Source of the DNA: an uncultured Clostridia bacterium
GTDB lineage: Bacteria; Bacillota; Clostridia; TANB77; CAG-508
Assembly (NCBI GenBank): GCA_934120135.1
Contig: CAKOTK010000004.1
Span: forward strand, 57,862-121,861
Length of the DNA stretch: 64,000 nt
Direction of reading: 5' to 3'
Shown: piece by piece, positions 5,626-58,234 of the stretch
Layout of the letters: each line of letters opens with the position of its first letter
Position numbering within the stretch: the first letter of the stretch is position 1
The notes under the pieces: model-generated
Told to the model about the DNA's origin: nothing
Databases searched by the model: none
Seen by the model: the letters and a program-made list of their open reading frames with translations, nothing else
Program-made: the position numbers and the translations under genes

Positions 5626-6187
5626 CTTCTACCCCTGATTTATTAAAAAATTTCACAACTTCTTTTAAATCTTTCCAAAACTCAATCTTCTTATTTTCGT
5701 CTCTAAGTAATGCAGCAGGATGCCAAGTAGGCATATACATTATTCCTTTTTGTTCTATCCATTTTCCTCTACTAGCTGTAATAGAATACTCTTTTCCTAA
5801 TACATTCTTTAAAGCTGTACTTCCTAAAAGAACTATTACCTTAGGTTTTACAAGAATTACTTGGTTGCGCAAATAATTTAAGCATGCTTCTGCTTCCTCT
5901 TGTTCTGGCACTCTATTTGCAGGTGGTCTGCATTTAACTATATTTGTTATATAAACTTCTTGTCTTTTTATTCCCAAACCTTGAAACGCTTTATTCATAA
6001 GTTGCCCTGCTTTTCCCACAAAAGGAAGTCCCTGAGTATCTTCGTCTGCACCAGGTCCTTCTCCTATAAACATTAAATCTGCTTGTTTGTTTCCCTCTCC
6101 AAAAACAATGCTTTTCCTTGTTGAACATAATTTACATCTATTACAATTTTTTATACTATTTTCTAAATCTTCCCAATTATCGTACAT
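5615..6187 (-). CDS. udg: uracil-DNA glycosylase, family 4 (Fe-S type)
   Basis: GEGPGADEDTQGLPFVGKAGQLL motif and N-terminal CxxC pair. Confidence 0.85.
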   Translation of the reverse strand: MYDNWEDLENSIKNCNRCKLCSTRKSIVFGEGNKQADLMFIGEGPGADEDTQGLPFVGKAGQLMNKAFQGLGIKRQEVYITNIVKCRPPANRVPEQEEAEACLNYLRNQVILVKPKVIVLLGSTALKNVLGKEYSITASRGKWIEQKGIMYMPTWHPAALLRDENKKIEFWKDLKEVVKFFNKSGVEDGK

Positions 6188-44410: not shown

Positions 44411-44623
44411 CCTATCCCTCTTTCCTTTTAATAACAATGCTTTCATTTTTTTCGACATTTTATAAGTTTTTGCAAAATTATTCTTGACAATATTGTTTAT
44501 TTGCATTATATTTATATAGGCAATTGGAAAAAAATGGGTAATTTTATTTTGTTTTGTCGAATTACCATTGCACGTTTTTGTTGTGTTAATTTATATTTAT
44601 TATATTATACGGGGGAAAAATAT

Positions 44624-45370
44624 ATGTTAGATTTTGTATTATGTGATGATAATTTTAACGCTTTAACAAGATTAGAAAAGATGCTAGAATCTTTATTTAT
44701 TGAGTGTAAAATTAACGCGCGTATTGCATTAAGTACAACAAATCCTGAGGAGTTAACTGAGTTTGTAAAAGTTAACAAGGTTAATGTTGTATTTTTAGAT
44801 ATTGATTTAAAATCTAACATTACTGGGCTAGATTTAGCTGATATTATCCGTAAAAAGGATAAAAACATTTATATTATCTTTACAACTGGTCATTTAGAAT
44901 ATGGTTTAATGGCATATAAGTATAAAACTTTTGATTATATACCCAAACCAATAACTGTAGAGAGATTAAAAGATACTATAAGTAGGTTGGTCGAAGATTT
45001 TTCGGGTTCTGAACCCAAGTTTGTAAGACTTGATAATAATAGGACTATTATCAAGCAAGATAAGATTTTGTATATTCAAAAAGAGGGGATGAAAACTATC
45101 TTTTATACTGATACAAGAGAATATGAGACTTATAGTTCTTTTAAAGTTATAATGTTACAATTGCCAGACACTTTTATACAATGCCATAAATCATATATCG
45201 TTAATACTAAAAAAATAACTAGTGTAGACTTTTCTAACAATGTTATTTTTCTAAATGATAATGAGGACTATAAATGCTTTATAGGTCCTAAATATAAAAA
45301 TAAAATTATGGAGGTTTTTAATTATGAAAATTTTTCAAACAATTTGGACAGCAATGACGACACAGAATGA
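44624..45370 (+). CDS. LytTR-family response regulator (AgrA-like)
   Basis: Receiver domain (LDFVLCDDN...D) plus LytTR DNA-binding domain. Start at M42 of the track ORF, SD GGGGGAAAAA. Confidence 0.8.
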   Translation: MLDFVLCDDNFNALTRLEKMLESLFIECKINARIALSTTNPEELTEFVKVNKVNVVFLDIDLKSNITGLDLADIIRKKDKNIYIIFTTGHLEYGLMAYKYKTFDYIPKPITVERLKDTISRLVEDFSGSEPKFVRLDNNRTIIKQDKILYIQKEGMKTIFYTDTREYETYSSFKVIMLQLPDTFIQCHKSYIVNTKKITSVDFSNNVIFLNDNEDYKCFIGPKYKNKIMEVFNYENFSNNLDSNDDTE

Positions 45371-46679
45371 AATCGCTTTAAGTATTGTAGGATTTTTATC
45401 TTGTTTTATTGATACTTTCGTGAATATGTTATTATTTACCACTATCTTAAATATAAACGCTACAAAGAAATCAAAAATTATTTATGTCATAGTTATGGGA
45501 ATAATAGCAATTCTATCTAGAAGTCTTATTCCTGATCCCTATGGTACATTTTTTAATATGCTTATTATTATATTTATAATTAAATTCATATTGAAGACAA
45601 GTTGGTTAAAATCTTTTTTATCTGAATTTATCGTAATAAGCACAAGTTCTTTAATGGAAATATTCTTTTTTAATTTTTATACAGAAATATGTAAAATACC
45701 ATATGATTTATTAATGTATACTCCTATATATAGATTATTATCTACTCTTTTAATATATTTGTTCATCTACATTATATACAAAATTATAAAATATTTTAAA
45801 TTTTATATAAAATTGGAAAACATGACCAAAAAGAATAAATACTTATTTATAACTAATGCTATATTAGGAATTATTGCAATGAGTACACAGTTCTATCTAC
45901 TTTCTGTTTATAGTGGTAATATGCCAATTATTATAACAATTACTAGTATACTAAGTCTATTAGCATATTTCGTTATTAGTATATATAGCTTATTAAGTAC
46001 AGGTAAACTAGATACTACCACTAGAGATTTAGAAGAAGCACAATTGTATAACAAAACATTAACAATTTTACATGACAGCATCAGAGGCTTTAAACATGAT
46101 TTTCATAATATTGTTCAAAGTATTGGTGGTTATGCAGATAGAGGTGACTTAGAAGGATTACGTGTTTATTACAGACAACTTCTACAAGATTGTGGACGTA
46201 CTAATAATTTAACTGCCCTAAATCCAGAAGTTATTAATAATCCTGCTATATACAATGTCCTAGCCACTAAATATCATAAAGCTGATGAAATTGGTGTTCA
46301 AATAAATTTAGGTATTTTTATAGATTTAAATGAAATTGAAAAATATATGAAAATTTATGAATTTACCAGAATATTAGGTATACTTTTAGATAATGCTATT
46401 GAAGCTGCTTCTGAATGTGAAAATAAAGTAATTCATGTAAGTTTTAGAAAAGAACAAAATCGTAGAAGATTACTTGTAATAATTGATAATACATATAAAA
46501 ATAAAGATATAAATGTAGATAAAATTTATGAAAAGGATTTTTCAACTAAATCTAAAAATACTAATAGCGGACTTGGTTTGTGGGAAGTCAGACAAATATT
46601 AAAGAAAAATAATAATTTGAATTTATATACTACTAAAAGTGAAGAGTTCTTTTCACAACAATTTGAAATATATTATTAA
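45324..46679 (+). CDS. AgrC/ComD-like HPK10 sensor histidine kinase
   Basis: Six to seven transmembrane helices; H-box FKHDFHN; N-box NAIEAAS; G-box GLGLWEV. Confidence 0.8.
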   Translation: MKIFQTIWTAMTTQNEIALSIVGFLSCFIDTFVNMLLFTTILNINATKKSKIIYVIVMGIIAILSRSLIPDPYGTFFNMLIIIFIIKFILKTSWLKSFLSEFIVISTSSLMEIFFFNFYTEICKIPYDLLMYTPIYRLLSTLLIYLFIYIIYKIIKYFKFYIKLENMTKKNKYLFITNAILGIIAMSTQFYLLSVYSGNMPIIITITSILSLLAYFVISIYSLLSTGKLDTTTRDLEEAQLYNKTLTILHDSIRGFKHDFHNIVQSIGGYADRGDLEGLRVYYRQLLQDCGRTNNLTALNPEVINNPAIYNVLATKYHKADEIGVQINLGIFIDLNEIEKYMKIYEFTRILGILLDNAIEAASECENKVIHVSFRKEQNRRRLLVIIDNTYKNKDINVDKIYEKDFSTKSKNTNSGLGLWEVRQILKKNNNLNLYTTKSEEFFSQQFEIYY

Positions 46680-46685
46680 AAAAGT

Positions 46686-46740
46686 AAATACAAAGAGGTA
46701 TCTTGATTTAAGATACCTCTTTGTATTTGTTTTGTCGTTT
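46686..46740. terminator. bidirectional terminator between the convergent kinase and agrBD units
   Basis: 19-bp stem AAATACAAAGAGGTATCTT / AAGATACCTCTTTGTATTT with T-tracts on both sides. Confidence 0.8.
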
Positions 46741-46772
46741 TAAGGAAATATTTATATTTATTTATATTATAA

Positions 46773-46892
46773 TTAATCTTTTTTGATTAATGATGCTGGC
46801 ATTGTTGGTTGATGTAATAATCCTAATACCCAACATGCTGTATTTGTAGATCTTGCGTATTTTTCTGCAACTTTAGCTAATAGTTTTAACAT
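46773..46892 (-). CDS. agrD: unannotated AgrD-like autoinducing-peptide precursor (39 aa) MLKLLAKVAEKYARSTNTACWVLGLLHQPTMPASLIKKD
   Basis: SD AGGAGG 7 nt upstream. Single Cys then HQP and a charged tail, as in clostridial AgrD. Immediately downstream of agrB. Confidence 0.7.
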   Translation of the reverse strand: MLKLLAKVAEKYARSTNTACWVLGLLHQPTMPASLIKKD

Positions 46893-46955
46893 TTTTATTC
46901 CTCCTTATATTATTATTTTTATATCATAAACATTGCCGGCCAATGTATTATAATC

Positions 46956-47576
46956 TTAAATTGTTTCCTCTGTATATACTTTGTAGCCATGTTTGTTATT
47001 TGTTATTTTATATGAAATAGGTAATACTGTTAGGTTTTGCAAAAACATTGCATAAATTATCATGTATGAAAATTGTTTGTATGGGTTAAATATTATTATT
47101 GATAATAAAACTACTAATGATATATATGACTTAATTTTTTTAGATTTTATTTCTTTTTTGCTCAAAATAGGCATATTTTCTGTGTCTGCAGGTGCATATT
47201 TAGCAATTATAATAATACTAAATATTGTTATCAACCCTGCTAATATATAAAGAATATTTTTATCTGATATTAAAATATATTTTGATAATATAATTGGTAA
47301 TAAATATAAAACAGATGTTGTAATCATACAACCTAAATGTGTTTTTAAATGAAAACCACCTGTAAAACTTCTATAAGGTGCTATTAAGAAAAATAATAAT
47401 AAAGTTTGCCATCCCATATTTAATAAAAATCCTATAATGAATAATATTAAAATTTTAGGTAATTCTCCAAAAATTAATCTTACACCAAAGTTAATAATTA
47501 ATTCTCTTTCCTCATCTATGTCTGTAACCTTTGATTTAATTTTTTCAGTTATCAAATCACAAAATTTATCAATCAT
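46956..47576 (-). CDS. agrB: accessory gene regulator B (AgrD-processing membrane peptidase)
   Basis: Polytopic membrane protein with RSFTGGFHLKTHLGC (conserved His/Cys pair). Confidence 0.8.
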   Translation of the reverse strand: MIDKFCDLITEKIKSKVTDIDEERELIINFGVRLIFGELPKILILFIIGFLLNMGWQTLLLFFLIAPYRSFTGGFHLKTHLGCMITTSVLYLLPIILSKYILISDKNILYILAGLITIFSIIIIAKYAPADTENMPILSKKEIKSKKIKSYISLVVLLSIIIFNPYKQFSYMIIYAMFLQNLTVLPISYKITNNKHGYKVYTEETI

Positions 47577-47742
47577 TTTCTTACCTCGTTCTTTGTTATC
47601 TGTATTTTATATTTTTTAAACGCAAAAATAAAAAAACTTTATAAAGATATAAAAATTGTGTGCGAAATTTGTCGTTTTTTGTTTTAGTCACAATTTTTGT
47701 ATTTTCATAAAGTTTAGTTTAATTTTACAAATATATAATGTT

Positions 47743-51534: not shown

Positions 51535-52092
51535 CTATCTATTTTCAATATAGTATTTAAGTATTTCTCTATCTCTATAATTCATAAACTTTGTTCTATA
51601 TATACTGTCATAATCAGAAGCTTTAAGTTGACTTTCACATTCTATAATTTTATTCAAAGCCTCCTCAGGTGTAAGCCAAATAACTAATCCTCCCTCATCT
51701 ATCTCTTTTTGTGTCATTTTGGTATTTTTTGTGTCATTTTTCACATCACATCTAAATACATAGGATATCTGTTGAAAATTTTCTTGAGATTTTAGTTCTC
51801 TTGTTATTCCTAATAATAATATATTATTGACTTCACATCCAACTTCTTCTAAAACTTCTCTTTCAAATGCTTTCTCTGAAGTCTCACCTTGCTCTACTCC
51901 ACCACCAGGCAATTTATATTCATTTTTTGCTTTCTTAAAAAATACAGCTATAGTTCCATCTTGCTTTTTTACAATTCCTCTTGCACCATACCTTATTTTT
52001 GGATTATCAAAAGGAATTGATTCAATTCCAAACGTATCATCTGTTATTTCTGTTATAATATTCATATTACCTCCCTCATATTTTAATATCAA
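51535..52092 (-). CDS. NUDIX hydrolase
   Basis: Nudix box GGGVEQGETSEKAFEREVLEEVG. Confidence 0.85.
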   Translation of the reverse strand: MILKYEGGNMNIITEITDDTFGIESIPFDNPKIRYGARGIVKKQDGTIAVFFKKAKNEYKLPGGGVEQGETSEKAFEREVLEEVGCEVNNILLLGITRELKSQENFQQISYVFRCDVKNDTKNTKMTQKEIDEGGLVIWLTPEEALNKIIECESQLKASDYDSIYRTKFMNYRDREILKYYIENR

Positions 52093-53491
52093 AATTAACT
52101 ATACTATTTTTTCTACTCATAATTTCATATGCTTTTTCTGTTATTTCTATACTTGTTTTGTGTTCTAACAAATCCGAACTGTCATCTATATTAAGTAGAA
52201 AATTTATAAAACAATTTTCTCTTGCTTTTTCGTTATATCCGTTAAAATATTTTTTATCTTTTTCAGATAATGTTGCAATGTCTAATGTTTCAAATATTTT
52301 GCCTCCAATAAGTTGACTATTTCTAAATACATATATATCAAAATGTTCTACACTTCCCACACCATTATTAAGTATTTGGTCTCTATCTTTTACTTCATAA
52401 GCCTGATAACTATGAACTTGTATATTCATAAGTGGTCCAACTTGTACATTAAGTCTTTCGTGTCTCACTCTACCATTTCCCTTATATGTATCTTTAGGTA
52501 ATTCACACCAAGCTCTTCTACTAAATCCTGATTGCATTAAATTTATAGAACAGTTAGTAATTAATTTTTCATCTTGTTTAAAATTAATTATTGAATGAAA
52601 ATCTATTTCACCAAAGTCTATAAATTTTTCTTTGTTTTCTATATATTTTTCAAATCTATTAGTTTTTAATATTCTCTTATAATCATAATTGTTAAAAGTA
52701 TTAAAAAAATCTACCGGATTATATGTAGAAACAAACATTTCCGCATTATTTATTTGCTTTCCCTTAGTTTCACGGTTTACTTCCATAAGCCAAGCCATTA
52801 AATCTATAAAGTGATATCCACTGTGAAAAAGTTTTCCGTATCCATATTTGTATGGATGATTTTCTCTCTCTAGAAATTCTGAAGGCATATTCCACATTCC
52901 GTCATTATGATATATATCTATATATGTAATTGGTATATTATACTCTCTTACCACTTGTTCTAATAAACGTTTCACATATAAATACCCTTCATGAAATCTT
53001 CTTTGACATTGTATTTTGAAGCTTATTTTATCTTTTTTCTTTTTATACATTTGACATAAAATATCATATTCTTCTTTAATTTTTAATGCTTGTTTTGTAT
53101 CACAGTTAACATTAATTGGAGCTGTAATTGGTTTATCCATTAATATGTTTATGTCATTTTCAAGAAAAAATTTAGCATATGCAAAATGCGATTTCGGCTC
53201 TGTTGATATTATAGCATATTTTATGTTCTTTTGTAGAATCAACTCTTGTATTTCTTTCTTGTCTTCACTTGTAAGTTCTAGGTTATCTCTTTTGTAGTCA
53301 TCCAACAAGTATAAATCTACCGACCTAAAATCGTTTTCTTCCAAGTAACTCTCTATTTCTCTTCTTTTGCTTTTCAAGTCTACTATAACTTTTGGACTCA
53401 TTCTGTATTTTTTAAATAAATTCATATAAATTCTTTTAGCATGAGGTCCTAGTCCAACAAGTATAATACTATAGTCGTTAAATTCATTCAT
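52076..53491 (-). CDS. Gfo/Idh/MocA-family NAD(P)-dependent oxidoreductase (471 aa)
   Basis: N-terminal Rossmann fold (IILVGLGPHAKRI) and EPK..DKP motif. Overlaps the NUDIX gene by 17 nt. Confidence 0.65.
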   Translation of the reverse strand: MNEFNDYSIILVGLGPHAKRIYMNLFKKYRMSPKVIVDLKSKRREIESYLEENDFRSVDLYLLDDYKRDNLELTSEDKKEIQELILQKNIKYAIISTEPKSHFAYAKFFLENDINILMDKPITAPINVNCDTKQALKIKEEYDILCQMYKKKKDKISFKIQCQRRFHEGYLYVKRLLEQVVREYNIPITYIDIYHNDGMWNMPSEFLERENHPYKYGYGKLFHSGYHFIDLMAWLMEVNRETKGKQINNAEMFVSTYNPVDFFNTFNNYDYKRILKTNRFEKYIENKEKFIDFGEIDFHSIINFKQDEKLITNCSINLMQSGFSRRAWCELPKDTYKGNGRVRHERLNVQVGPLMNIQVHSYQAYEVKDRDQILNNGVGSVEHFDIYVFRNSQLIGGKIFETLDIATLSEKDKKYFNGYNEKARENCFINFLLNIDDSSDLLEHKTSIEITEKAYEIMSRKNSIVNFDIKI

Positions 53492-53588
53492 ACGAGTATC
53501 CTCCCTTGCAAAAACTCTATAGCAGTATTATATTAGCAATATTCCTTAAATACAAATACAAATATTTTATATATTATATAAGTGAAAT

Positions 53589-53623
53589 TTATATCAAAAA
53601 AGAAAATGCCATTTGGCATTTTC
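53589..53623 (-). terminator. rho-independent terminator after the CYTH gene
   Basis: On minus strand: AAAATGCC-aaat-GGCATTTT followed by CTTTTTTG. Confidence 0.6.
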
Positions 53624-53632
53624 AAATCTTAA

Positions 53633-54211
53633 TTATTTTACATCTAAAAAATTATTAATTGTATTATTTAATATTTCATTAAATTTTGGATCTTTTGCTT
53701 TTTCTTTAAATATATCTCCATATAATTTTTCCGGCTTGCTATTTATTCCTATTCTTTTTAAATATTCATCTAAATCTTTGAATTCATATTCTTCTTTTAA
53801 TTCAAACTCAACAAAGTTTCCCAGTATCTCTAGCTCATCTATATATACCTTTGCAACATCAATCTCTCTTACTTCTCTAATTCTATTTATATACAAATAT
53901 GGCTGTAATCCAATATTCTTTAAAAAATCATACCCATCTTTCATTGTAGGAATTACAATTTTGGACTCACTCCAAGAATTATCATCTAATCTTCTTTTAG
54001 ATTCAATTATACATTTACTTGATTTATTTCTAAGGCGAATAATGTATCCGAGTTTTTCTAATGAATCAAATCCATATTGTCCCATGCATAAATCTACACA
54101 TTGAGTTGCTTTTTCTATTGGACAAGATGAATTTATAATTCTATTTTTAATTTCTTCATCTATTTTATATCTAATTTCTCTTTCTATTTCTGTTCCACCT
54201 GACATATACAT
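53633..54211 (-). CDS. CYTH-domain protein (CyaB/thiamine-triphosphatase-like triphosphate tunnel metalloenzyme)
   Basis: EIEREIRYKI N-terminal motif, IRLR, and ExE (VEFELK) motifs. Overlaps the 3' end of the upstream gene. Confidence 0.75.
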   Translation of the reverse strand: MYMSGGTEIEREIRYKIDEEIKNRIINSSCPIEKATQCVDLCMGQYGFDSLEKLGYIIRLRNKSSKCIIESKRRLDDNSWSESKIVIPTMKDGYDFLKNIGLQPYLYINRIREVREIDVAKVYIDELEILGNFVEFELKEEYEFKDLDEYLKRIGINSKPEKLYGDIFKEKAKDPKFNEILNNTINNFLDVK

Positions 54212-56019
54212 CTGCCTCCCATTTCTTCGTAGACTTTTTTTATTTTACTTGCAAGTTCATTATCATCTCTCTCTTTTATAGAATAATACAAATCTATAGT
54301 ATCATTTGTAGCTCTACATAAATTAACTTTTCCATCTTGACTAATATATAAATCATTATGTTCCCTACAAAGTTCAGTTTTATCATTCTGTTCAGATATA
54401 ATACTACAAGTACATCTTTGTAAAAAGATGTTGTGAATTCCGTTAGAAAATAATTTTTTTCTAAAACTATCTTTTATATTCTTATACCCCATTTGTTTGA
54501 TTAAAGGCTCTATTTTATATATACTTGTATAATATTTTGAATTTTTTGGATATACCTCTACAATTTTCAAATCTGCTTTTATTGAAGAAGCAAAGCCTAC
54601 CAATTCTTGTATAGAATTATAATTATCATTTATTCCCCTTAATAATGTTGTATTTATGCTTATTTTTAATGTTGGATATTTAAACCTCATTTTTTTAACT
54701 GCAGAAACCACTTTTTCATATGAATTTTCAACAGTAGAAATACTCTGATATTTATTTTTATCAAAACTATGTAAAGAAATATTAAGCTTGTCTACCATTT
54801 CCCCTATCCACATATTATCTTCTAAAAGATATCCATTGGTAGTTACTTTTATATTGGCTCCATGTTTCTTTAAGTTGGTAATTATTTCTTTTAAGTTTTC
54901 CTTTAATAGTGGCTCTCCCCCTGTTAATTGAACTGTTTTTATTCCATATCTATTGTTTAGTACACTATACATGTATTCAATATCATCTGGTGTCATAAGA
55001 GATTCCTTCTTAGTTTTTATTCCTTCTTTATGACAAAACTCACAATTATACACACAGTCTTGTAATAATATTAAGCGGATTGTTTTTTGCTTAAGACTAT
55101 TTAACATATTAGCTTTTTCTTTAACTATTTCTACAAATTTTTTAGGTGCACTTGTTAGGAATTCTTTAATATATACTATACCAATTTTAGTTTTTGGTAA
55201 TTCTTCTTTTATTGGTATTTCTATAAGTTCACCTGATTGTAACTTATCCATAACAGACATCTTGGTAAAATACCCTATTCCCAGTCCCTTTTTTACAAGA
55301 TCCAACATTACTTCTGTTGTTGCAACTTCAATGTTAGGTTCAAATATCTCTAGAGACCCTCCTAATATATTATCCAGAGCTTTTCTTGTACTTGTTTTAG
55401 CTTGTTGTAACAGCAAAGGATATTGTGATAGTTCATTTATGCTTATGGCTTTACTATTACTTATTAACTTTGCATACTTATTACTAGCTACGAAACAATT
55501 ATCTACCTCTATTAAATCATCCACCACAATGTCTTCTCGTGAACTTTCTATTGGATAGCTATCTATTATTACATCCAGCTCTCTTTTTTCTAACATATCA
55601 ACCATTTCTGTAGTTGATCTATTAACAATAGAAAATTTTATTCCTGGATAGTTTTTATTAAAAGCTTCTATTATATCTGAAACTAAAAAGATACAAATAT
55701 GCGTCGGTACTCCTATTCTAACTTCTCCTTTTAATAAATCATTTGAATCATTTAGAACTTTAAATCCAGTTTTTATTGTATTGTATGCATTTTCCATATA
55801 ATACATAAGTTTCTGAGCATCAGCAGTAAGTTCAACACCTTTTGCTGTACGGTTAAACAATTTACATTCCAATCTGTCCTCTAATATTTTTATATTACGA
55901 CTGACAGCCGGTTGTGATACATACAACATGTCTGCCGCTTTAGATATGCTACCAGATTTTGCCACAGCTACAAATGATTTACATAGATTCAAATCTATAT
56001 TATTTAATTCTTCCATCAT
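54184..56019 (-). CDS. LysR-type transcriptional regulator fused to a MoaA/viperin-like radical-SAM domain (611 aa)
   Basis: aa 1-~300: LysR HTH (SISKAADMLYVSQPAVSRNIKILE) plus substrate-binding domain. aa ~305-611: CVYNCEFCH (CxxxCxxC), TGGEPLL, and MoaA-like C-terminus with additional Cys and a DGKVNLC motif. Confidence 0.7.
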   Translation of the reverse strand: MMEELNNIDLNLCKSFVAVAKSGSISKAADMLYVSQPAVSRNIKILEDRLECKLFNRTAKGVELTADAQKLMYYMENAYNTIKTGFKVLNDSNDLLKGEVRIGVPTHICIFLVSDIIEAFNKNYPGIKFSIVNRSTTEMVDMLEKRELDVIIDSYPIESSREDIVVDDLIEVDNCFVASNKYAKLISNSKAISINELSQYPLLLQQAKTSTRKALDNILGGSLEIFEPNIEVATTEVMLDLVKKGLGIGYFTKMSVMDKLQSGELIEIPIKEELPKTKIGIVYIKEFLTSAPKKFVEIVKEKANMLNSLKQKTIRLILLQDCVYNCEFCHKEGIKTKKESLMTPDDIEYMYSVLNNRYGIKTVQLTGGEPLLKENLKEIITNLKKHGANIKVTTNGYLLEDNMWIGEMVDKLNISLHSFDKNKYQSISTVENSYEKVVSAVKKMRFKYPTLKISINTTLLRGINDNYNSIQELVGFASSIKADLKIVEVYPKNSKYYTSIYKIEPLIKQMGYKNIKDSFRKKLFSNGIHNIFLQRCTCSIISEQNDKTELCREHNDLYISQDGKVNLCRATNDTIDLYYSIKERDDNELASKIKKVYEEMGGRCICQVEQK

Positions 56020-56124
56020 CTGTCTCCTATTTATAAATTTTATTTATGTTGTTGTTTTGCATTATATCATATTTTTATTTTGCTTTCAATATATATTACT
56101 TATTGTGATATAAAAAAATAAAAT

Positions 56125-56153
56125 TTGACACATTTTGCATTTTATAGTAATAT
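56125..56153 (+). promoter_or_regulatory. sigma-A promoter for glmS (TTGACA-17-TAATAT)
   Basis: TTGACA 56125-56130, TAATAT 56148-56153; gives a ~240-nt leader. Confidence 0.6.
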
Positions 56154-56204
56154 ATTAGCACTAGGAATACAAATTAAAAAAATATCCTTTAGGAGGGTTG
56201 TATA

Positions 56205-56385
56205 TATTTAGCGCCAGGACAGTGTTTATACACTGTTGACGAGGTTAGAGCTTATCGAAAGATTCGGCGGATGGCTCTATGGCATGCGTTACTGCCATTA
56301 CATATTAACAAAAAAATTATAGTGATATAATATAACAAATTTAATATGAGTGCGCTTTAATTTGTATGCCTTACTTTAAATTTTA
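56205..56385 (+). ncRNA. glmS ribozyme: glmS ribozyme (GlcN6P-dependent self-cleaving riboswitch)
   Basis: Core AGCGCCAGGAC...GACGAGG...TATCGAAAGATTCGGCGGATG matches the glmS ribozyme P1-P2.2 consensus; located in the glmS 5' UTR. Confidence 0.8.
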
Positions 56386-56401: not shown

Positions 56402-58234
56402 ATGTGTGGCATTATAGGTTATATAGGAGACAAAAAAGCCACTCCAGTTTTAATAAATGGTTTATTATGTTTAGAATACCGAGGTTATGACTCTGCTGGT
56501 ATTGCTGTTATTGAAGACGGCAAAATTACTGTAATGAAAGATAAAGGAAGAGTTGCAAATTTAGAAGCAATTGATGGTATAAATGATTTAAAATCTACTA
56601 TTGGTATTGCACATACAAGATGGGCAACTCATGGAAAACCTGCAAAAGAAAATTCTCATCCTCATATGGATAATAGCGGTGAATTTGTAGTTGTGCACAA
56701 TGGTATTATTGAAAATTACCATGAATTAAAAGAATTTTTAGCTTCTAAAGGATATTACTTTTTATCCCAAACAGACACAGAAATAATTCCTAATTTGATT
56801 CATTACTATTACACAAATGGAATAAATGATGATGACAAATTCTTAAGAGCCGTAAAATCTGCAGTCGATGATTTAAAAGGAAGTTATGCACTAGAAATTA
56901 TTTCTAACTTACATCCTGATAGAGTTATTGTAGTTAGAAAAGATAGTCCTTTAGTTTTAGGAAAAGGAAATGGTGAAAACTTTATTGCATCAGATATTCC
57001 TGCTGTTTTAAAATATACAAAGGAATTTTATTTGTTAGATGACCAAGAGTATGCAGTTGTTTATAAAGACCATATAGATTTTTATGATAATAGCTTAACT
57101 TCTCATAGCAAAGCTATTAAGAATATTGAATGGGATGCTACTGCAGCAGAGAAAAATGGCTATGAAGATTATATGTTAAAAGAAATATTTGAACAACCAA
57201 CTGCAATTCGTGAGACCATTGGTTCTAGATTTAAACTTGGAGAAAAATGCAGTTTTGATGACATAGACATTTCAAAAGAATATTTAGAGAAAATAAATAA
57301 GATATATATTGTTGCTTGTGGTACAGCTATGCATGCAGGTTTAGTCGGAAAAAATGCAATTGAAAAACTTTGCAAAATTCCTACTGTAGTTGATATTGCA
57401 TCTGAGTTCCGTTATCGTGACCCAATTATAGATGATAAAACACTTTGTATCTATATTAGTCAATCTGGCGAAACTGCTGATACAATTGCAGCTTTAAAAC
57501 TTGCTAAGGCTAAAGGTGCTAAAACATTAGCTGTTTCAAATGTAATTGGAAGTTCAATTACTCGTGAGGCTGATTATACAATATATACTCATGCCGGTCC
57601 TGAAATTGCTGTTGCTTCTACAAAAGCATATACTTCACAAGTTGTGTTAATGGTAATTTTAGCTATGTATTTTGCTGAAGTTTTAGGATCATATGATGGA
57701 ATTGAAAAATTAAAAGCTGATATTTTAGATTTACCTGCTAAAGTTGAAGCCATGTTAGATGAAACAGATGCTATTAAAGAGTTTGCTAACAAAGTATATA
57801 CTGAGCATGATATGTACTTTTTAGGTAGAGGTACTGATTACAATGTTGCAATGGAAGGTTCTTTAAAATTAAAAGAAATTTCATATATTCATTCTGAGGC
57901 ATATGCTTCTGGCGAATTAAAACATGGACCTATTGCTTTAATTGAAAATGGTATAACTGTAATTAGTATTTTAACAGATCCTAATTTAGTTGAAAAATCT
58001 ATTAGCAATATTCAAGAAGTTATAACAAGAGGTGCTAAAACTTTAGTCGTTACAAATCAAAAGTTATCAAATAGTTCATTTAATTATGTTATAAATATAC
58101 CTGAAACTAATAGCCTTATCTCACCTATCCTTTCTGTTATTCCACTTCAATTGCTTTCCTACTACATTGCTAAAAATAAAGGATTAGATGTTGATAAACC
58201 AAGAAACTTGGCTAAATCAGTTACAGTTGAATAA
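56402..58234 (+). CDS. glmS: glutamine--fructose-6-phosphate aminotransferase
   Basis: MCGIIGY N-terminal nucleophile, two SIS domains, C-terminal KSVTVE. Confidence 0.95.
   Translation: MCGIIGYIGDKKATPVLINGLLCLEYRGYDSAGIAVIEDGKITVMKDKGRVANLEAIDGINDLKSTIGIAHTRWATHGKPAKENSHPHMDNSGEFVVVHNGIIENYHELKEFLASKGYYFLSQTDTEIIPNLIHYYYTNGINDDDKFLRAVKSAVDDLKGSYALEIISNLHPDRVIVVRKDSPLVLGKGNGENFIASDIPAVLKYTKEFYLLDDQEYAVVYKDHIDFYDNSLTSHSKAIKNIEWDATAAEKNGYEDYMLKEIFEQPTAIRETIGSRFKLGEKCSFDDIDISKEYLEKINKIYIVACGTAMHAGLVGKNAIEKLCKIPTVVDIASEFRYRDPIIDDKTLCIYISQSGETADTIAALKLAKAKGAKTLAVSNVIGSSITREADYTIYTHAGPEIAVASTKAYTSQVVLMVILAMYFAEVLGSYDGIEKLKADILDLPAKVEAMLDETDAIKEFANKVYTEHDMYFLGRGTDYNVAMEGSLKLKEISYIHSEAYASGELKHGPIALIENGITVISILTDPNLVEKSISNIQEVITRGAKTLVVTNQKLSNSSFNYVINIPETNSLISPILSVIPLQLLSYYIAKNKGLDVDKPRNLAKSVTVE

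Follow-up and report, generated by a model that had tools for sequence, protein, structure and literature searches.

A conserved fusion of a LysR-type regulator to a MoaA-fold radical-SAM enzyme at the head of a predicted nucleotide-modifying operon

Why should a transcription regulator and a radical-SAM (S-adenosylmethionine) enzyme be made as a single polypeptide, and on what would such a protein act? The question is raised by a 64,000-nucleotide (nt) stretch of DNA from an uncultured Clostridia bacterium (contig CAKOTK010000004.1, positions 57,862 to 121,861), referred to here as the window, in which a gene on the minus strand (54184..56019) encodes a 611-residue protein combining a LysR-type regulator with a MoaA-fold radical-SAM enzyme. 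The 3′ end of this gene overlaps by 28 nt the gene of a 192-residue CYTH (triphosphate-tunnel) protein (53633..54211), which is followed by a hairpin and T-run resembling an intrinsic terminator (53602..53623) and then by two further genes, termed cargo below, for a 471-residue Gfo/Idh/MocA-like oxidoreductase (Gfo-like; 52076..53491) and a 185-residue NUDIX hydrolase (51535..52092), all on the minus strand. G+C makes up ~28% of the window. A sequence-only reading of this DNA had described the CYTH overlap, the terminator and the two cargo genes, and all four open reading frames were found again; it had also proposed a system acting on nucleotides. The analysis reported here leads us to favour, with somewhat better than even confidence, a LysR-controlled operon with two promoters, whose enzymes would modify a nucleotide by radical chemistry and then trim its phosphates and carry out redox chemistry on the sugar.

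The fusion itself is real and conserved, and is neither a chance join nor a product of assembly. Reading from the N-terminus, Pfam recognizes a LysR winged helix-turn-helix DNA-binding domain (PF00126, HTH_1, 72.9 bits; residues 10-69, 55813..55992), in which many residues are invariant among 14 orthologues, an effector-binding LysR_substrate domain (112.3 bits; residues 95-302, 55114..55737) and, within a radical-SAM domain occupying residues 312-611 (54187..55086), a Radical_SAM match at residues 319-467. This last domain holds the CX3CX2C motif (CVYNCEFC, 55033..55056), GGEP at residues 367-370 and a C-terminal cysteine-rich stretch (54316..54414) that ends in LYISQDGKVNLC and contains C538, C551 and C568, which, together with C604, are candidate auxiliary-cluster cysteines; all of these features lie on the minus strand. 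In Foldseek comparisons the N-terminal ~300 residues adopt the full-length fold of a LysR-type transcription regulator (LTTR), with E values of 1e-20 to CcmR, OxyR and CbnR, and in the AlphaFold model of the whole protein (pLDDT 82 overall and ~90 in the enzyme half) one confident continuous helix (residues 290-310) links the LysR domain to the first strand of the radical-SAM barrel. The DNA of the junction contains no homopolymer run and no hidden stop codon.

A search of 5.8 billion proteins matched 326 clusters; the best 120 of these are nearly all full-length (596-614 residues, with a handful truncated), show 50-100% identity, carry HTH_1, LysR_substrate and Radical_SAM domains throughout and come from four sources, ENA, Logan, NCBI and JGI. 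The single uninterrupted frame seen in the sequence-only reading is thus confirmed, both by its Pfam domains and by its continuity in many independent assemblies. In the 14-orthologue alignment the LysR and enzyme halves are conserved alike (mean column identity 70%), the junction residues K312 and R315 are invariant, and so are all of the catalytic radical-SAM motifs in the window protein and 13 orthologues. The window protein is 99% identical to one on a Hadza-gut contig from a metagenome-assembled genome (MAG) labelled 'uncultured Clostridia bacterium'. Ten of the GTDB species representatives carry the fusion; they are uncultured gut Clostridia MAGs except for one labelled Tenericutes. One orthologue, P0067, recurs without any change of sequence in over 3000 sample blocks, chiefly from human-gut cohorts.

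The expectation that orthologues would retain CX3CX2C and GGEP was borne out, the only exception seen being the distant P0212 (L032, 3491..5266), a 591-residue LysR fusion whose radical-SAM-like half lacks both motifs and keeps the C-terminal Cys/ND motif. P0212 is known from one contig, where its neighbours include no CYTH gene and the next gene encodes an Imp-YgjV membrane protein. To judge from its sequence it looks like a pseudo-enzyme, and its loss of the SAM-cluster motif suggests that the radical-SAM domain can persist as a non-catalytic module.

To which radical-SAM enzymes is the C-terminal half related? Searched alone and exhaustively against 1.84 billion cluster representatives, it matched ~75 clusters (50% identity) at E < 1e-30, most of which are standalone proteins of ~300 residues with 30-36% identity. 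On the family profile, members score 228-374 bits and genuine archaeal MoaAs (those with PF06463) start at 197 bits; because the true MoaAs score separately and lower, the family is regarded as a distinct sister group of archaeal MoaA. Standalone members are found in Pacearchaeota (DPANN archaea) and in Nomurabacteria of the candidate phyla radiation (CPR), and the family has no NCBIfam model of its own. Some members (P0304, P0323, P0335 and others) bear the JGI label 'cyclic pyranopterin phosphate synthase' though they do not qualify as MoaA, and these labels are probably mis-annotations.

The closeness to MoaA is nonetheless evident. The best NCBIfam and PDB matches of the radical-SAM half are MoaA (PDB 1tv7/2fb3), and the overall MoaA fold is present, including the C-terminal extension. 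The cut-offs of the three curated MoaA models, however, are missed (TIGR02668, 150.3 bits against a cut-off of 325; NF001199, 138.7 against 231; TIGR02666, 123.7 against 284), and Pfam finds no match to PF06463 (Mob_synth_C) in the fusion protein. Aligned with archaeal MoaA, the enzyme half keeps CX3CX2C (C322/C326/C329), GGEP, TTNG and NxS, and its catalytic residues are equally invariant in the standalone enzymes of the family. The auxiliary motif of MoaA, C-x2-C-x13-C, is replaced in the family by C538-x12-C551-x16-C568 with the additional invariant C604, the second cysteine of the MoaA CxxC being His, Tyr or Asn, and the base-contact stretch (N/T)(R/T)xR-L-T of MoaA becomes N-D-L-(Y/F)-(I/V)-(S/T).

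In Staphylococcus aureus MoaA, guanosine triphosphate (GTP) is contacted by the arginines R17, R266 and R268, of which R17 contacts the triphosphate (PDB 2fb3/2fb2); PDB 2fb2 is the R17/266/268A mutant. The equivalent of R17, R315, is invariant across the family, standalone enzymes included, but the R266/R268 region is the changed base-contact stretch, a combination that argues against GTP specificity and not against a nucleoside triphosphate (NTP) substrate. The earlier assignment of LYISQDGKVNLC to the GTP-binding region of MoaA therefore holds in part: the segment is homologous to the C-terminal cluster and substrate region of MoaA, but the GTP-specific residues are not kept, and it cannot be read as a GTP site because neither the guanine-contact arginines nor CxxC are conserved. 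The spacing CxYxCxFCxH, previously taken as an echo of viperin, also occurs in archaeal MoaA and so is not viperin-specific.

The company that the family keeps points to its likely substrates. Its members are found fused to cytidine monophosphate (CMP) kinase (P0130, P0128), NUDIX (P0180), HD phosphohydrolase (P0189, P0318) and DegT-type sugar-nucleotide aminotransferase (P0138, P0226) domains, and lie beside genes for guanylate kinase, AAA_28 and cytidylate kinases, PfkB, a fusion of a P-loop kinase with a phosphoribosyltransferase (PRTase), Ham1/ITPase, NT5C, acetate kinase and further NUDIX and CYTH proteins. The nearest solved relatives by sequence are MoaA (acting on GTP), AbmM (the albomycin thiosugar enzyme), viperins (NTPs) and BlsE (a cytosine nucleoside). 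Together with the invariant R315, these fusions, neighbours and relatives support a nucleotide as the probable substrate; the nucleotide-acting system envisaged in the sequence-only reading is supported to this extent, its chemistry being deduced from the same relationships.

Of the three partner proteins, the CYTH protein is the most constant. Its domain is found by Pfam, and its model (pLDDT 90.7) shows an eight-stranded tunnel fold matching small archaeal CyaB-like proteins, inorganic triphosphatases and class IV adenylyl cyclases. The subfamily is narrow, with 49 clusters of 184-201 residues save for a few truncated or extended entries, several of which are located on the same contigs as radical-SAM genes. 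Invariant residues comprise E10-x-E12-x-R14, K16, R59/R61/K63, K72, E82, R110/R112/R115, D125 and E135-x-E137, so that the lysine of the ExExK signature is replaced by R14 and K16 is invariant; since the catalytic residues of the superfamily are kept, sequence and model agree in making an active protein probable. The CyaB model TIGR00318 gives 19.6 bits, below its cut-off of 57.95, and a PDB sequence search with the CYTH protein returned no true match.

The Gfo-like protein matches PF01408 with 33.5 bits (against a threshold of 24) over residues 76-127 only, with GLGPHA at residue 13 and DKP at residue 119, and its C-terminal ~340 residues have no Pfam match. Homologues in the unfused operon L025 (460 bits) and in L028 (402 bits), whose radical-SAM gene is fused to a CMP kinase, indicate by sequence that the protein is spread beyond the clade of the window; BLAST and iterated hidden Markov model searches detected no relation between it and the 409-444-residue unknown proteins encoded at equivalent positions in L005, L008 and L023. 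The NUDIX hydrolase (PF00293, 54.2 bits) has an intact Nudix box, GGVEQGETSEKAFEREVLEEVGC, at residue 64. Its start is uncertain (52065..52092): the listed TTG start creates a 17-nt overlap with the Gfo-like gene, and an in-frame ATG nine codons on (residue 10) removes it.

How much of this arrangement recurs was assessed in 12 non-redundant fusion loci. An orthologous CYTH gene (33-61% identity) is present in all 12, directly following or overlapping the fusion gene in eight and ending the operon after inserted cargo in the other four; a NUDIX cluster occurs in seven of the 12, and the Gfo-like protein appears in three different operon architectures. Conservation of the cluster elsewhere, one of the points that the sequence-only reading left for comparison, is thereby established. 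The remaining cargo is diverse: a kinase-PRTase fusion, Ham1 and an ABC importer in L001; a radical-SAM-aminotransferase fusion and two NUDIX genes in L008 and L017; and guanylate kinase, a possible second radical-SAM protein, NUDIX, a second CYTH protein and an AAA_28 kinase in L005. The full set of LysR, radical-SAM, CYTH, Gfo-like and NUDIX proteins recurs with LysR fused, adjacent or divergent. In L023 and L025 LysR and the radical-SAM enzyme are encoded by adjacent separate genes whose stop and start overlap (…TATGAAAAATGA…), with a Gfo-like homologue downstream of CYTH in L025, and in L028 (5300..10733) an intact 300-residue LysR, 36% identical to the LysR half of the fusion over 292 residues, is transcribed divergently from genes for CYTH, a CMP-kinase-radical-SAM fusion, NUDIX, a bona fide acetate kinase (358 bits) and the Gfo-like protein. 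The acetate kinase might, speculatively, supply the step from nucleoside diphosphate to triphosphate.

Several of these loci show further peculiarities. In both L023 and L025 the LysR frame changes at one common place near residue 250 (~5850..5880; tblastn frames 3 then 1); a pseudogenising mutation that the two loci share, programmed frameshifting or an inherited error might account for it. A paralogous radical-SAM branch (L008, 9946..12096; L016; L017) is fused to a DegT/PseC-type aminotransferase and followed by two NUDIX genes; it shares its operon with the LysR fusion in L008 and L016, and on a Pacearchaeota contig (L021, 6001..9261) the branch lies adjacent to such an aminotransferase gene, with two NUDIX genes and an NT5C nucleotidase gene following. 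In L019 (12557..15045), from a 'Tenericutes'-labelled MAG, genes for an FtsJ-like methyltransferase (393 residues) and a second radical-SAM protein (431 residues) come after those of the fusion and CYTH proteins. Two large serine recombinases are encoded directly after the operon-terminal CYTH gene in L001 (15297..17797) and L018, so that a mobile element adjoins the locus, here in a very common gut species.

Two promoters can be read from the window. P1, ahead of the fusion gene (56061..56089, minus strand), has the -35 hexamer TTGAAA (56089..56084), a 17-nt spacer and a TG-extended -10 TATAAT (56066..56061); with 11 of 12 matches it is the best promoter-like site in the region, and every locus examined has an equivalent extended -10 promoter ahead of its fusion gene. 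The internal promoter P2, ahead of the Gfo-like gene (53527..53555, minus strand), likewise read from the sequence, has the -35 TTGTAT (53555..53550), a 17-nt spacer and a perfect -10 TATAAT (53532..53527); its -35 is weak (3/6), as expected for an activator-dependent promoter.

At both promoters the motif ATAAA-N5-TTTAT is predicted to be a LysR-type operator, presumably bound by the LysR half. Candidate site A (56033..56047, with no strand assigned) is the perfect dyad ATAAATAAAATTTAT, which includes a T-N11-A box, and lies between the -10 of P1 and the ribosome-binding site, a position that suggests autorepression; the same dyad recurs 24-30 nt upstream of the start codon in L011, L012, L013 and the distant L008. 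Candidate site B (53578..53592, minus strand), ATAAATTTCACTTAT, is centred ~65 bp upstream of the inferred P2 start point, and L001, L005, L008, L011, L012, L013, L019, L023, L025 and L028 have an exact dyad at the corresponding position. A second, degenerate dyad, ATAAAATATTTGTAT (53556..53570, minus strand), is centred near -43, overlaps the -35 of P2 and resembles an LTTR activation site; it is a one-mismatch site in the window, L012 and L013, with variants in L011, L023 and L025. A T-N11-A recognition site near -65 combined with an activation site near -35 is the textbook geometry of LysR-activated promoters. When the spacers after the CYTH genes of the window, L012, L013, L025 and L005 are aligned, the dyad and the block of -35, 17-nt spacer and -10 are conserved despite a different downstream gene in L005 and an unfused LysR in L025; the terminator-like hairpin is also seen in the aligned L012 and L013.

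Since the window taken by itself gives no significant motif count, the dyads were tested instead by their positions in different loci. Over 13 loci and 194.6 kb, 15 of the 23 exact dyads fall at site A or B, five in the 5′ untranslated region and ten ahead of the cargo promoter, and these span about seven lineages with differing N5 spacers. Against an intergenic-only background, 11 of 12 exact dyads are at site A or B, with one in the remaining ~12.6 kb. Loci that lack a LysR gene have no dyad at the equivalent place; L015 ends at a contig edge. A riboswitch in the spacer between the CYTH and Gfo-like genes, also entertained, was dropped in favour of operator and promoter, Rfam giving no match there or in any other intergenic region of the operon.

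We propose that P1 would transcribe the fusion and CYTH genes under autoregulation through site A, with the LysR half repressing its own promoter and the hairpin (53623..53602) stopping most of these transcripts. Once its effector domain binds the substrate or product of the pathway, the LysR half at site B would activate P2 and thereby switch on the Gfo-like and NUDIX genes. The enzyme half would reductively cleave SAM and take a hydrogen from the ribose of a nucleoside tri- or diphosphate, which need not be GTP; MoaA abstracts H-3′ and viperin H-4′. The CYTH and NUDIX proteins would then hydrolyse or cyclise the phosphate chain of the product, and the Gfo-like enzyme would oxidize or reduce the sugar in an NAD(P)-dependent step. 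The fusion, probably derived from neighbouring LysR and radical-SAM genes, would hold regulator and enzyme at a 1:1 ratio and may permit allosteric coupling. The system may serve to make a toxic nucleoside analogue, against which the cell protects itself, or an antiviral nucleotide, or else to salvage or clear away an unusual nucleotide.

Several observations weigh against this proposal, or at least against its details. Substrate, product and cluster content are inferred from homology and context, and the fold matches of the modelled CYTH protein do not separate a hydrolase from a cyclase. Site B of the window has one mismatch to ATAAA-N5-TTTAT, site B is absent from L017, and exact dyads in the window alone do not exceed chance (2 found, 1.87 expected). 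The loci used for the operator survey are, moreover, partly related, the window, L011, L012 and L013 forming one clade and L023 and L025 another. The unfused arrangement of L023 and L025 may be decaying, given the frame change in LysR, and since cargo varies by lineage, and the proteins of ~416/439 residues encoded at equivalent positions show no detectable kinship with the Gfo-like protein, what is treated here as one pathway may really be several.

The surroundings of the locus bear on several of the alternatives. On one side lie uvrC, an rRNA methyltransferase, a pseudouridine synthase and an agr-like locus, and on the other glmS, serS, a GTPase, gltX and RNase J; these flanking genes are housekeeping genes and not a defence island. 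The locus behaves as an accessory module, since its genomic context differs even between relatives at 83% identity. The gene for glmS (56402..58234), divergent from the fusion gene, is preceded by a glmS glucosamine-6-phosphate ribozyme (56199..56358, plus strand, 97.8 bits), the only Rfam match in the window, and the promoters of glmS and of the fusion gene both lie within the spacer 56020..56200. The agr-like quorum-sensing locus (44501..47576) encodes a LytTR response regulator (44501..45370), a GHKL histidine kinase (45324..46679) and AgrB (46956..47576; minus strand). The one further exact ATAAA-N5-TTTAT of the window (47628..47642), possibly a coincidence, lies ~50 nt upstream of agrB.

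Among the alternatives, the possibility that the locus makes a secreted nucleoside antimetabolite with self-protection is unlikely but worth keeping in view. The radical-SAM and Gfo-like enzymes would modify the sugar of an NTP, and CYTH, NUDIX, HD or NT5C proteins would detoxify or dephosphorylate the product. The oxidoreductase and NUDIX hydrolase of the window fit this logic, as do L021, L008 and L017, which combine a radical-SAM enzyme with a DegT aminotransferase and NUDIX, L021 having a nucleotidase in addition. Precedents exist in ThmABC of the 4′-thiothymidine cluster, which comprises a radical-SAM enzyme, a nucleoside kinase and a self-resistance nucleoside triphosphatase (PMC12691670), and in AdgB-E, homologues of Pur10, Pur4, Pur7 and Pur3, which convert GTP to 3′-amino-3′-deoxyguanosine by 3′-oxidation, removal of two phosphates, amination and dephosphorylation (PMC9239236). 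AbmM, a radical-SAM enzyme that modifies a sugar ring, is moreover the second-best PDB sequence match, but ThmA is reported to be unrelated to AbmM (PMC12691670), no exporter is conserved in the examined loci, and the system is found in reduced-genome CPR and DPANN organisms and in gut Clostridia not known to make antibiotics.

The same limited credence is due to an inducible pathway that salvages or clears away an unusual base or nucleotide. LysR would here sense the compound and induce kinases, pyrophosphatases (NUDIX, Ham1) and importers, the radical-SAM enzyme repairing or converting it. The commonest task of LysR regulators is indeed the control of substrate-induced catabolic or salvage operons; Ham1/ITPase, NUDIX, the kinase-PRTase fusion and the NMT1-type ABC importer are all found among the cargo, and small-genome, salvage-dependent hosts and the position of the locus amid housekeeping genes accord with such a role. 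No known salvage route, however, requires a MoaA-like radical-SAM enzyme, and a cargo of aminotransferase or oxidoreductase looks biosynthetic.

A viperin-like antiviral defence, whereby the radical-SAM enzyme would make a chain-terminating analogue of a cellular NTP on phage infection, fed by kinases and switched on by LysR, appears rather improbable. PADLOC pVip models match the radical-SAM core at 67-72 bits, the family is fused to or lies beside nucleotide kinases, and true viperins, too, show linkage with kinases and in four cases with a domain predicted to be a triphosphatase/cyclase; the modular cargo and the variable genomic position would also suit a defence system. The viperin model NF038283, though, gives family relatives 52-75 bits against a cut-off of 180, the 71.6-bit pVip match spans only profile positions 2-175 of 257, which is the shared core, and the C-terminal half is MoaA-like with extra cysteines. 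PADLOC finds no meaningful defence match for the CYTH, Gfo-like or NUDIX proteins, the flanks are of the housekeeping kind, and one orthologue is identical in the many sample blocks mentioned above, unlike patchy defence genes; an ABC importer and PRTase among the cargo point rather to salvage. In IMG/VR viral contigs the family profile gave one weak match of 23% identity, so the family is essentially absent there, and a phage origin, also considered, was dropped on the same ground.

More doubtful still is the idea that the fusion and CYTH proteins form a self-contained generator and receiver of a signal, whereby the radical-SAM enzyme and a cyclase-type CYTH protein would make, from a cellular or foreign NTP, a modified, possibly cyclic, nucleotide that is the ligand of their own LysR domain and gates interchangeable cargo such as pyrophosphatases, kinases, importers and sugar-modifying enzymes. 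If true, both the nucleotide signal and this class of transcription factor, coupled to an enzyme, would be new.

It is improbable that the radical-SAM domain is only a non-catalytic sensor, binding an Fe-S cluster or responding to redox state, SAM or a nucleotide and modulating LysR. P0212, which lost CX3CX2C and GGEP and kept the rest of the domain, shows the sort of protein expected, and the rigid junction helix of the model would permit allostery, but only one contig encodes P0212, in another context and without a CYTH gene, and in the window protein and 13 orthologues the catalytic motifs are invariant and consist of the same residues as in the standalone enzymes.

That the enzyme is an ordinary MoaA for molybdenum cofactor synthesis, fused to a regulator by happenstance, is very improbable: MoaA tops the NCBIfam and PDB matches and some sources label members as cyclic pyranopterin phosphate synthase, but three curated cut-offs are missed, PF06463 is absent, CxxC and the guanine-contact arginines are not conserved, true MoaAs form a separate, lower-scoring group, the family extends into CPR and DPANN lineages, and no molybdenum cofactor genes are present in the operon, within ~10 kb of the window locus or in 12 related loci, as the sequence-only reading had already argued in setting molybdopterin synthesis aside. 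An assembly or sequencing artefact joining two genes, for which the separate reading frames in L023 and L025 could be cited, is effectively refuted by over 100 full-length clusters of independent origin in four data sources, the conserved K312 and R315 and a junction without homopolymer.

If the favoured reading of a LysR-controlled, nucleotide-modifying operon is true, the enzyme half belongs to a previously unnamed family of MoaA-fold radical-SAM enzymes, distributed across gut Clostridia, CPR bacteria and DPANN archaea and partly mislabelled as MoaA or cyclic pyranopterin phosphate synthase, whose partners point to new nucleotide chemistry. The fusion would be a rare LysR regulator joined to an enzyme of its own operon, with a predicted operator, and the modular layout of core and cargo would offer a natural set of variants for dissection of the pathway. 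Since one orthologue is identical in thousands of human-gut metagenome samples, the product, be it an antimetabolite, an antiviral nucleotide or an intermediate of salvage, could then matter for gut ecology.

How does the system compare with those already known? With MoaA it shares the fold and the SAM-cluster motifs, but its family is partnered by CYTH, NUDIX and kinases and not by MoaC, and is LysR-fused. Viperins and pVip belong to the same part of the superfamily, are similarly linked or fused to nucleotide kinases and a triphosphatase/cyclase-type partner, and by analogy make an NTP substrate likely; only the shared core aligns, however, and the fusion family has a MoaA-type C-terminal cysteine region, which viperins lack, and does not lie in a defence island. 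AbmM (PDB 8wm2) has the FCHxEG motif in common with the fusion, and the layout of ThmABC mirrors that of a radical-SAM enzyme with a kinase and CYTH or NUDIX, the likeness being one of gene types. The AdgB-E pathway has no radical-SAM enzyme, CYTH protein or LysR fusion, unlike the system described here. Its likeness is by enzyme type only, to the Gfo-like and NUDIX proteins of the window and to the DegT aminotransferase, NUDIX and NT5C of related loci, and was drawn through the Pfam families to which we take the Pur proteins to belong.

On the side of the regulator, the N-terminal 300 residues share with the classical LTTRs (CbnR, BenM, OxyR and CcmR) their fold, and the locus shares with theirs the -65 dyad, the second site near -35 and the site at its own promoter; whereas those are stand-alone proteins of ~300 residues, the 611-residue fusion carries a C-terminal enzyme of 300 residues through a continuous helix, and in contrast to the classical layout it is encoded by the first gene of the operon, with only the relative L028 showing the divergent form. 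Literature searches turned up no paper on a LysR-radical-SAM fusion, in agreement with the sequence-only reading, nor on a radical-SAM-CYTH system. The 'trigger enzymes' NadR, BirA and PutA combine DNA binding and catalysis of the regulated pathway in one polypeptide, but none is of the LysR type and none has a radical-SAM domain. Enzyme-regulator fusions are thus known, as are radical-SAM enzymes that modify nucleotides alongside kinase or phosphatase partners, and it is the combination of the two, together with a predicted operator, that is new.

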